64,000 bases of DNA from an uncultured bacterium (GTDB taxonomy: Bacteria; Fidelibacterota; Marinisomatia; SCGC-AAA003-L08; GCA-2689995), in assembly GCA_964529325.1 (NCBI GenBank), contig CAZGWH010000002.1, positions 3,750 to 67,749 of the forward strand, given 5' to 3'. Under the pieces are notes generated by a model. That model saw only the letters and a list, made by a program, of their open reading frames with translations, was not told where the DNA came from and ran no database searches. Positions 7,525-8,038 of the stretch are shown here, piece by piece; within the stretch, counting starts at the first letter, position 1, and each line of letters starts with the position of its first letter. Both the position numbers and the translations under genes were made by a program.

Positions 7525-7910
7525 TGAGTATTGGATATTCGAAAACAGTAAAGTATGATATTGATATTGCAGATTCTAATGTAAGAGACGCTCTTCAATC
7601 GCAGGGATTTGGAATTATTACTGAAATAAATGTTAAGGATACATTCAAAAATAAATTAGATGTTGATTTTAAACCTTATCGTATTCTTGGTGCATGTAAT
7701 CCTAAAATTGCACATGAAGCATTGCAAGTGAATCCAGAAATTGGATTATTATTACCGTGCAATGTGGTTTTATGGGAGAATAGTGATAAGTCAACAACCG
7801 TTTCTGCAATTAACGCTGAGAAGATGTTATCTCTTGTAGATGAAGATGATTTGATTGATGAAGCGAAACATATAAATTCATTATTAAAAATGGTAATTGA
7901 TAGTTTATGA
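7524..7910 (+). CDS. DUF302 family protein
   Basis: GFGIITEINV...YRILGACNP..A..AL....IGLLLPCNVV. Confidence 0.9.
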   Translation: MSIGYSKTVKYDIDIADSNVRDALQSQGFGIITEINVKDTFKNKLDVDFKPYRILGACNPKIAHEALQVNPEIGLLLPCNVVLWENSDKSTTVSAINAEKMLSLVDEDDLIDEAKHINSLLKMVIDSL

Positions 7911-8038
7911 TGGATGTACTTTATTTTATTCTTTTTTATATTGCATGGATTATGCTAAATAGATTTTTATCTAAGAAATTTGGTATATCAACTTGAGGTT
8001 CAAGATATATTCCTCAGGAAGAGGAGAAATCTAAGTAA
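7907..8038 (+). CDS. Candidate 43-aa single-TM selenoprotein (in-frame TGA 7994-7996, codon 30); missed by ORF track
   Basis: MMDVLYFILFYIAWIMLNRFLSKKFGIST-U-GSRYIPQEEEKSK*. The start overlaps the DUF302 stop (ATGA); with readthrough its TAA overlaps the next ATG (TAATG, 8036-8040). Confidence 0.7.
8003..8032 (+). promoter_or_regulatory. Putative SECIS hairpin that also contains the SD of the FmdB-like gene
   Basis: AGAUAUAUUCCUC-[AGGAA]-GAGGAGAAAUCU; loop begins 20 nt after UGA; 3' arm contains GAGGAG. Confidence 0.6.

Follow-up and report, generated by a model that had tools for sequence, protein, structure and literature searches.

A 43-residue single-pass membrane protein of Marinimicrobia as probable member of a widespread bacterial selenoprotein family with selenocysteine and cysteine forms

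Introduction

Canonical bacterial selenoprotein genes, such as fdhF of E. coli, are characterized by an in-frame UGA codon, by a hairpin immediately downstream of it and by the presence of selA, selB, selC and selD. The hairpin carries a loop of 3-7 nucleotides (nt) starting with G(G/U), it is found at a spacing of 16-37 nt, and homologues exist that encode cysteine (Cys) instead of selenocysteine (Sec). These features are shared by the family of a gene located at positions 7907-8038 of the forward strand of a stretch of 64,000 nucleotides (the window) on contig CAZGWH010000002.1 of the GenBank assembly GCA_964529325.1, an AT-rich metagenome-assembled genome (MAG) of Marinimicrobia/SAR406 with a genomic GC content of 29.5%. 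From the comparison with its homologues we consider it very probable that 7907-8038 is a real gene encoding a single-pass membrane selenoprotein of 43 residues, with Sec at the UGA, and that it belongs to a widespread family. The peptide differs from the canonical bacterial selenoprotein families in that it shows no detectable homology to any of them, and at 43 residues it is below the working size of most gene finders and selenoprotein screens.

A similar architecture is known from eukaryotes. The proteins SELENOK and SELENOS possess a single-pass anchor near the N-terminus and a disordered cytosolic tail with one Sec, which is located next to or near the C-terminus; their Sec insertion sequence (SECIS) is encoded in the 3' untranslated region and they function in the endoplasmic reticulum. 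The peptide is alike in architecture without any sequence relationship to these proteins, and its Sec lies near the helix instead. In bacteria, the FeoB-associated Cys-rich protein (PF12669) is a small, N-terminally anchored membrane protein with a Cys motif. Furthermore, the MerT-type "putative mercuric transport protein" (PF02411) was listed as selenoprotein (PMC13188914). With both, the peptide has in common an anchor and a short Cys/Sec motif on what is probably the cytoplasmic side, and some of its homologues are encoded near ArsR and efflux genes. However, neither family was matched by the Sec or Cys forms in the Pfam scan, and the motif G(I/V)PT-U/C-MSxxC in combination with a single helix is distinct.

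The original prediction, made from the letters of the window, could not assign the peptide to a known Sec family, and the searches agree with this. In a scan of Pfam-A 2025 and NCBIfam 20.0 with the peptide, five members from its class (Marinisomatia) and ten forms with Cys or Trp (W) at the Sec position, nothing better than E=0.005 was obtained and none of these sequences reached a curated cut-off. A word-indexed protein search with the 43-residue peptide gave no match; no candidate shared enough words of five residues. No single-transmembrane "PT-U-MSxxC" entry is listed among the 119 prokaryotic selenoprotein families and subfamilies tabulated in 2026 (PMC13188914). In the literature, no description was found of a selenoprotein connected with DUF302, YgaP, "small membrane protein" or Marinimicrobia, the families of Haft & Tolstoy 2025 being covered only via the NCBIfam models; the database BSepDB was built from previously reported families. 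We propose that the peptide represents a new selenoprotein family that uses a known recoding mechanism.

Reading frame and predicted architecture

The open reading frame (ORF) had been predicted to sit between a DUF302 gene and an FmdB-like gene, and its placement, its coordinates and its overlaps with both neighbours were all confirmed on the sequence and by the Pfam and NCBIfam matches. The start codon ATG (7907-7909) overlaps the TGA stop codon of the DUF302 gene (7908-7910) as ATGA, the single in-frame TGA of the 43-codon ORF is the codon for residue 30 (7994-7996), and the ORF ends with TAA (8036-8038), whose last A doubles as the first base of the FmdB-like gene's ATG at 8038 (TAATG). 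The translation reads MMDVLYFILFYIAWIMLNRFLSKKFGIST-U-GSRYIPQEEEKSK and is followed by the stop codon. If the TGA at 7994-7996 were the stop, 41 nt (7997-8037) would be left to the next start, as was noted originally. One-base stop/start overlaps also exist at 6950, 7327 and 7524, where, again as predicted, they join the two rhodanese genes, the DUF6132 gene and the DUF302 gene upstream of the peptide gene.

AlphaFold2 with the family alignment predicts one hydrophobic helix formed by residues 2-24 (codons at 7910-7978, forward strand), the putative single transmembrane anchor, with a pLDDT (predicted local distance difference test) of 94 over the first 20 residues, while the tail holding Sec is predicted with low confidence and as disordered. 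Trp14 within the helix is invariant and the helix is followed by the basic stretch NRFLSKK, which is part of a conserved membrane-adjacent segment, NR.L.K.G[IV].T. Sec is positioned approximately six residues past the predicted helix. Within the family, the tail after Sec comprises 13-30 residues and the total length ranges from 43 to 60 residues. The acidic N-terminus before the helix and the basic residues after it suggest, by the positive-inside rule, an N-out/C-in topology, which would place Sec on the cytoplasmic side of the membrane. Translation would be initiated at the ATG that overlaps the DUF302 stop and is coupled to it, the UGA at 7994-7996 would be decoded as Sec by SelB and tRNA-Sec as directed by a hairpin about 20 nt downstream, and termination at the TAA at 8036-8038 would in turn be coupled to initiation of the following gene. 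In the product, Sec would stand at the beginning of a flexible, charged tail that is probably cytoplasmic.

Selenocysteine machinery and genetic code of the genome

All four genes that serve as criterion for a bacterial selenoprotein gene, i.e., selA, selB, selC and selD, were found in the same genome. The tRNA-Sec scores 64.7 bits, which exceeds the Rfam cut-off, and is reported by ARAGORN as tRNA-SeC with the anticodon tca; SelB was detected with 373.5 bits and SelA with 506 bits. The gene for the selenophosphate synthetase SelD (378 bits, G000:C14:1205-2122) has one in-frame TGA itself, and SelD is thereby predicted to be a selenoprotein as well. Across the order, selB is present in 61 of the 74 genomes including every genome that carries the peptide. 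The only genome of the same genus that encodes no selB (G002) also lacks the peptide; an apparent peptide match in it lies inside another gene and was rejected as a chance match. The sole DUF302 gene of this genome, with 43% identity, stands alone without an adjoining peptide or zinc ribbon gene.

Reading of the UGA as Trp, Gly or Cys, either by a variant genetic code or by near-cognate suppression, has to be considered as W or G is given for this residue in some database entries, apparently because their genes were called with code 4 or code 25. Among 1209 long ORFs of the genome, TAA terminates 72%, TGA 16% (195) and TAG 12%, and as TGA also ends the DUF302 gene just upstream, the genome uses the standard code and reassignment of TGA to Trp or Gly was rejected. 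Together with the complete Sec system, the loop signature and spacing of a bacterial SECIS (bSECIS) that are found in the family hairpin, and the homologues without TGA, which carry Cys as the usual counterpart of Sec, this renders such non-Sec read-through extremely improbable.

Conservation of the TGA and distribution of Sec and Cys forms

When the peptide was searched against six-frame translations, several genera of the order proved to have homologues, each of them with one TGA at the same place. By a profile search of the class, matches were obtained in 64 of 307 genomes and in 28 of 81 genera. The real homologues of the class all carry a single TGA, located at the aligned position, and TAA, TAG or Cys was found there in none of them. 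The consensus of the class is M-N-D-(hydrophobic helix with the invariant Trp)-N-R-x-x-L-P-K-M-G-V-P-T-U-G-V-P-Y-x-P-Q-x-E-E. Beyond the class, DNA was scanned for P-K-M-G-(V/I)-P-T followed by TGA, with one genome per species. Of the 108 matching stretches, 80 were evaluated, and 74 of these 80 are clear members of the family. These 74 further Sec forms span at least 15 phyla and include Acidobacteriota, Desulfobacterota, Planctomycetota, KSB1, Calditrichota and Ignavibacteria, and furthermore Spirochaetota, Myxococcota, Chloroflexota, Verrucomicrobiales, a MAG of the Parachlamydiaceae and others. Most of them read LPKMGVPT-U-MSxxC. Among the real homologues of the class and the 74 loci of the other phyla, the latter found with a pattern that itself includes the TGA, neither TAA nor TAG occurs at the aligned position. 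The family spans many bacterial phyla and is not local to the source genome, which goes beyond the original prediction.

Sec forms also exist in the cultured Trichlorobacter thiogenes ATCC BAA-34 and in a MAG of T. lovleyi. The Sec form of T. thiogenes is encoded on NZ_FUWR01000015.1 (~146-298, forward strand) and reads MKDIILLLIILVVWFVVNKYLLPKMGVPT-U-MSDSCTPPVREEKK... As a cultured and public carrier, this species is usable as experimental system.

An exhaustive profile search covered 1.84 billion representative proteins and returned 401 representatives at E<=1e-3, of which the best 150 were sorted by hand. Approximately 102 of these end exactly at profile position 29, i.e., at the TGA site, and represent shortened gene calls. 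About 40 are Cys forms with ...L-P-x-(L/F)-G-(I/V)-P-T-C-M-S-G-A-C..., five have W at the position, of which the one examined has a TGA codon, one has G, one has R and one is unsorted. A metagenome scan added 47 more Cys-form loci. Cys aligned to the TGA in some genomes had been named as a test of the original prediction, which itself had not described a Cys version of the family. Both Sec and Cys versions appear to exist, and the usual active motif would be U/C-M-S-x-x-C. These natural versions of the U/C-x4-C motif offer a direct test of what selenium adds.

In one relative (G004:C38:2283-2402, reverse strand), the frame of the peptide directly follows the TAG stop of the DUF302 gene (TAG TGG ATA TTT...) and contains no ATG, GTG or TTG before the transmembrane segment, which reflects either a non-canonical start (ATA/ATT) or an assembly error. 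In another (L236, 5001-5282), the part after the TGA was called as a separate "gene" of 50 residues.

Coding sequence after the UGA

The sequence after the UGA is conserved as protein, as U-MSxxC in most phyla and as U-G-x-P-Y-x-P-Q-x-E-E in the class. No stop occurs in frame within the first ten codons past the TGA in any of the 93 distinct Sec-form loci, and the open stretch has a median length of 24 codons. It reaches at least 12 codons in 99% of the loci, compared to 61% and 40% for the two alternative frames. At +4 to +9 after Sec, a Cys is found in 59 of the 93 loci. The U-MSxxC of the Sec forms has its counterpart in the C-MSGAC of the Cys forms, which is direct sequence evidence that translation continues past the UGA; conserved coding downstream of the TGA, another test proposed at the outset, is borne out by these data.

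The possibility that the UGA is an ordinary stop has to be weighed here. A membrane peptide of 29 residues ending with ...GIST would then be produced, and the hairpin would act otherwise, for instance in mRNA stability or in the translational coupling to the zinc ribbon gene. The public gene calls give this 29-residue product for the large group of shortened representatives described above, TGA is a legitimate stop in the genome and the hairpin of the window is weak. Yet no real homologue ends with TAA or TAG even though TAA is the preferred stop of the genome, the protein sequence is conserved beyond the TGA in the Sec and Cys forms alike, the frame remains open in every Sec-form locus, and the Cys forms are without the hairpin signature (3/38). 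We regard an ordinary stop as very unlikely and favor the insertion of Sec. If this is correct, a very small, membrane-anchored and phylogenetically broad selenoprotein family of about 400 clusters at 50% identity is added, which includes members in the abundant marine SAR406 and in the cultured Trichlorobacter. It would have been invisible so far, as gene calling either ends the ORF at the UGA or omits it altogether, and selenoproteome counts for many Sec-using phyla would then be underestimates.

In many versions from Marinimicrobia (e.g., L061, L062, L069) a Cys is present 7-8 residues past Sec, as U-G-V-P-Y-N-S-Q-C or U-G-V-P-Y-N-P-P-C. No such Cys follows Sec in the source genus, so the resolving partner may differ among lineages.

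The SECIS-like hairpin

The model of Zhang and Gladyshev for the bSECIS, as restated in PMC13188914, comprises a stem of 4-16 base pairs (bp) and a loop of 3-9 nt with a G within its initial two positions, at 16-37 nt from the UGA and with a minimum free energy of -7.5 kcal/mol or below. In the window, a SECIS-like hairpin is located at 8003-8032 (forward strand; UUCCUC-AGGAA-GAGGAG), identified from folds, conservation in the class and the statistics of the family. Its 5' arm (8010-8015) and 3' arm (8021-8026) form a stem of 6 bp including one G-U pair, the loop AGGAA covers 8016-8020 and starts 20 nt past the A of the UGA, and an optional lower stem may be formed by 8003-8006 and 8029-8032. 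The calculated energy is -6.5 kcal/mol for the upper stem and -8.7 kcal/mol with the lower stem. The hairpin agrees with the bSECIS model in all its features, with the energy only narrowly so. The original prediction had proposed this hairpin as SECIS, and the 5-nt loop AGGAA and the 20-nt spacing stand; the fold of the window by itself is not significant. The window alone could not settle the matter, and the significance of the hairpin derives from the comparison among homologues.

For the family, a hairpin was defined by at least 5 bp at 8-26 nt after the UGA and its signature by G(U/G) within the first three bases of the loop. A hairpin is present in 65 of the 74 Sec forms of other phyla and the loop signature in 58, compared to 14-20 and 1-4 of 74, respectively, in shuffled sequences. 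In 38 distinct Cys-form loci from the metagenome scan, a hairpin was found in 12 and the signature in 3. The Cys forms are GC-richer than the Sec forms, yet largely without hairpin. The hairpin is thereby specific to the Sec forms, and the conserved combination of TGA and hairpin that had been suggested as a check is observed. The median distance between the U of the UGA and the loop start is 23 nt in the Sec forms (interquartile range 21-25). The stems are wholly different among phyla (GACGUCGA/UCGACGUC, CUGUUC/GAACAG, GCGGAA/UUCCGC and AGACCC/GGGUCU), whereas the loops are constant as GUC, GGUC, GGU or GUG. In Marinimicrobia the stem is nearly fixed as YCUCAG-NNN-UGAGR because it also encodes P-Q-x-E; a few compensated variants exist, with CCUCG/CGAGG, CCCC/GGGG and AGUC/GACU. 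Within the class, pairing is found in 82% of the cells compared to 42-55% for slid partners.

Several points weigh against the interpretation as a Sec-encoding gene with a role in redox or sulfur chemistry. The case for translation and for Sec in the product is built on sequence comparison. The hairpin of the window is small and reaches the bSECIS energy threshold only with the lower stem, and its context of 61 nt folds no better than shuffled sequences (z = -0.44). Covariation within the class is weak, as three pairs show double changes and this number is equalled by 102 of 500 shuffles, so that the support for the hairpin comes from the unrelated stems of the other phyla and from the control with the Cys forms. 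Moreover, the source lineage lacks the second Cys of the U-x4-C motif, and the chemistry of its version may differ from the family norm. Finally, the function is read from a gene neighbourhood that is mixed, with sulfur genes at this locus and metal-efflux or CcdA genes elsewhere.

The adjacent FmdB-like zinc ribbon

FmdB-family selenoproteins were reported from the GOS metagenome (PMC2398784) and are listed as UxxU in a recent table (PMC13188914). In these published proteins Sec replaces a Cys of the CxxC ribbon, resulting in CxxU or UxxU. The gene directly downstream of the peptide (forward strand) encodes an FmdB-like zinc ribbon (TIGR02605/PF09723) and is probably a second selenoprotein gene. 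It was called as 8038-8211 and would extend to 8220, as it continues past its TGA (8209-8211) as ...SCGSKNSGFS-U-GV-stop with TAA at 8218-8220. In contrast to the published forms, the ribbon motifs CKTC and CPKC retain all four Cys and the TGA is located three codons before the stop, which places Sec at the second or third residue from the C-terminus. The C-terminus C-x(3-8)-G-F-(S/T)-U-(A/G)-(x)-stop is kept in all 29 class loci with a zinc ribbon gene downstream, and a GFS-U zinc ribbon beside the peptide is also found in KSB1 and in some Desulfobacterota (23 of the 74 loci of other groups). The tail resembles the "UXX-star" naming style of NCBI, and no such model matches it. The sequences indicate a Sec form that is different from the published FmdB selenoproteins and that would be unreported, so that the same locus would hold two new Sec forms, the peptide and an FmdB zinc ribbon with near-C-terminal Sec.

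A candidate SECIS for this gene (8224-8238, forward strand; TTACC-TGGGA-GGTAA) starts 12 nt past the second TGA and shares bases with the Shine-Dalgarno sequence of the gene that follows. The relatives have strong covarying stems at this hairpin, i.e., CUGCGGUCGCAG, CUACGGUCGUAG, CUGUGGUCACAG and CCAUGGUCAUGG, with a GGUC or AGUU loop.

Gene neighbourhood and possible function

The peptide gene lies in a run of genes on the forward strand, assigned by Pfam and NCBIfam except where stated otherwise. It comprises genes for a thioredoxin (5403-5744), an extracytoplasmic function (ECF) sigma factor (5754-6338), a small CxxC protein (6335-6568) placed in anti-sigma position by its location after the ECF sigma gene, a first and a second rhodanese (6633-6950 and 6950-7327), a DUF6132 protein (7327-7524) and the DUF302 protein (7524-7910; PF03625, E=4e-26), which is the neighbour in relatives as well. 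Downstream of the peptide and the zinc ribbon follow genes for a glutaredoxin/GST-N-like protein (8240-8578), an MBL-fold protein resembling persulfide dioxygenase (8587-9288) and a YeiH-type membrane protein (9397-10386).

The neighbours in other phyla were read from precomputed Pfam contexts, as simple ORF calling is too noisy in GC-rich genomes for a tally. Around a Cys form in another phylum, genes for thioredoxin, ECF sigma, zf-HC2 anti-sigma and the peptide stand in this order, and ArsR and an RND pump come next. Elsewhere, a YgaP-like transmembrane gene overlaps the start of the peptide gene or a DsbD_TM-thioredoxin fusion is encoded directly downstream. Further neighbours are DUF302, Zn_ribbon_8, YHS-domain proteins and CzcB-type RND efflux genes. 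In Trichlorobacter thiogenes the peptide is adjoined by CcdA/DsbD-like and TlpA-like thioredoxin genes (775-2030, reverse strand). Thioredoxin, ECF sigma/anti-sigma, YgaP-like/DUF6132 and CcdA/DsbD genes are recurrent neighbours of the small membrane component that the family represents.

Judged from this neighbourhood, we tentatively suggest, as the most likely role, that the selenol (or thiol) might act as a membrane-tethered relay for redox equivalents or sulfane sulfur in thiol/persulfide stress. The whole set would then constitute a thiol/persulfide-stress operon beginning with the thioredoxin and ECF sigma genes. Partners of the relay might be thioredoxin- and glutaredoxin-like reductants and small Cys-bearing membrane proteins, such as DUF6132, the YgaP-like transmembrane protein and CcdA/DsbD. 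In the source lineage, the C-x8-U tail of the adjacent zinc ribbon could form a Se-S or Se-Se bond with the peptide.

The main functional rival is that the Sec peptide serves as ligand for soft metals or metalloids (Hg, Cu, Cd, As, Te) on the inner side of the membrane and hands the ions to efflux systems. Homologues adjoining CzcB-type RND efflux, YHS-domain and ArsR-type genes are in line with this, and U/C-x4-C is a plausible chelating pair. On the other hand, the partners in the window are rhodaneses, DUF302, a glutaredoxin-like protein and the MBL-fold protein resembling persulfide dioxygenase, the source lineage has lost the second Cys, and other homologues are encoded beside CcdA/DsbD and thioredoxin genes; binding of soft metals is in our view rather unlikely.

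As an extension of the relay, peptide and zinc ribbon might form a two-selenoprotein module, in which the membrane selenol and a soluble Cys...Sec partner undergo Se-S/Se-Se exchange and thereby pass either sulfane sulfur or reducing equivalents between reductants of the thioredoxin type and the DUF6132/YgaP-like transmembrane/CcdA carriers, with induction by the ECF sigma factor and a redox-sensitive anti-sigma factor. This module is doubtful at present; if it existed, the peptide family, with Sec or Cys, would be a missing generic part of bacterial thiol/persulfide stress systems in many phyla.

For the product of 6335-6568 there is no Pfam match at E<=0.001. The usual His of HxxxCxxC appears to be Ser in this protein (SLENCPEC), and the gene in the same position beside a Cys-form homologue (L075) matches zf-HC2. 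The second rhodanese (6950-7327) starts with MNWKIINILIIGMLFSSC, which resembles a lipoprotein signal peptide, and one of the two rhodaneses is probably exported.

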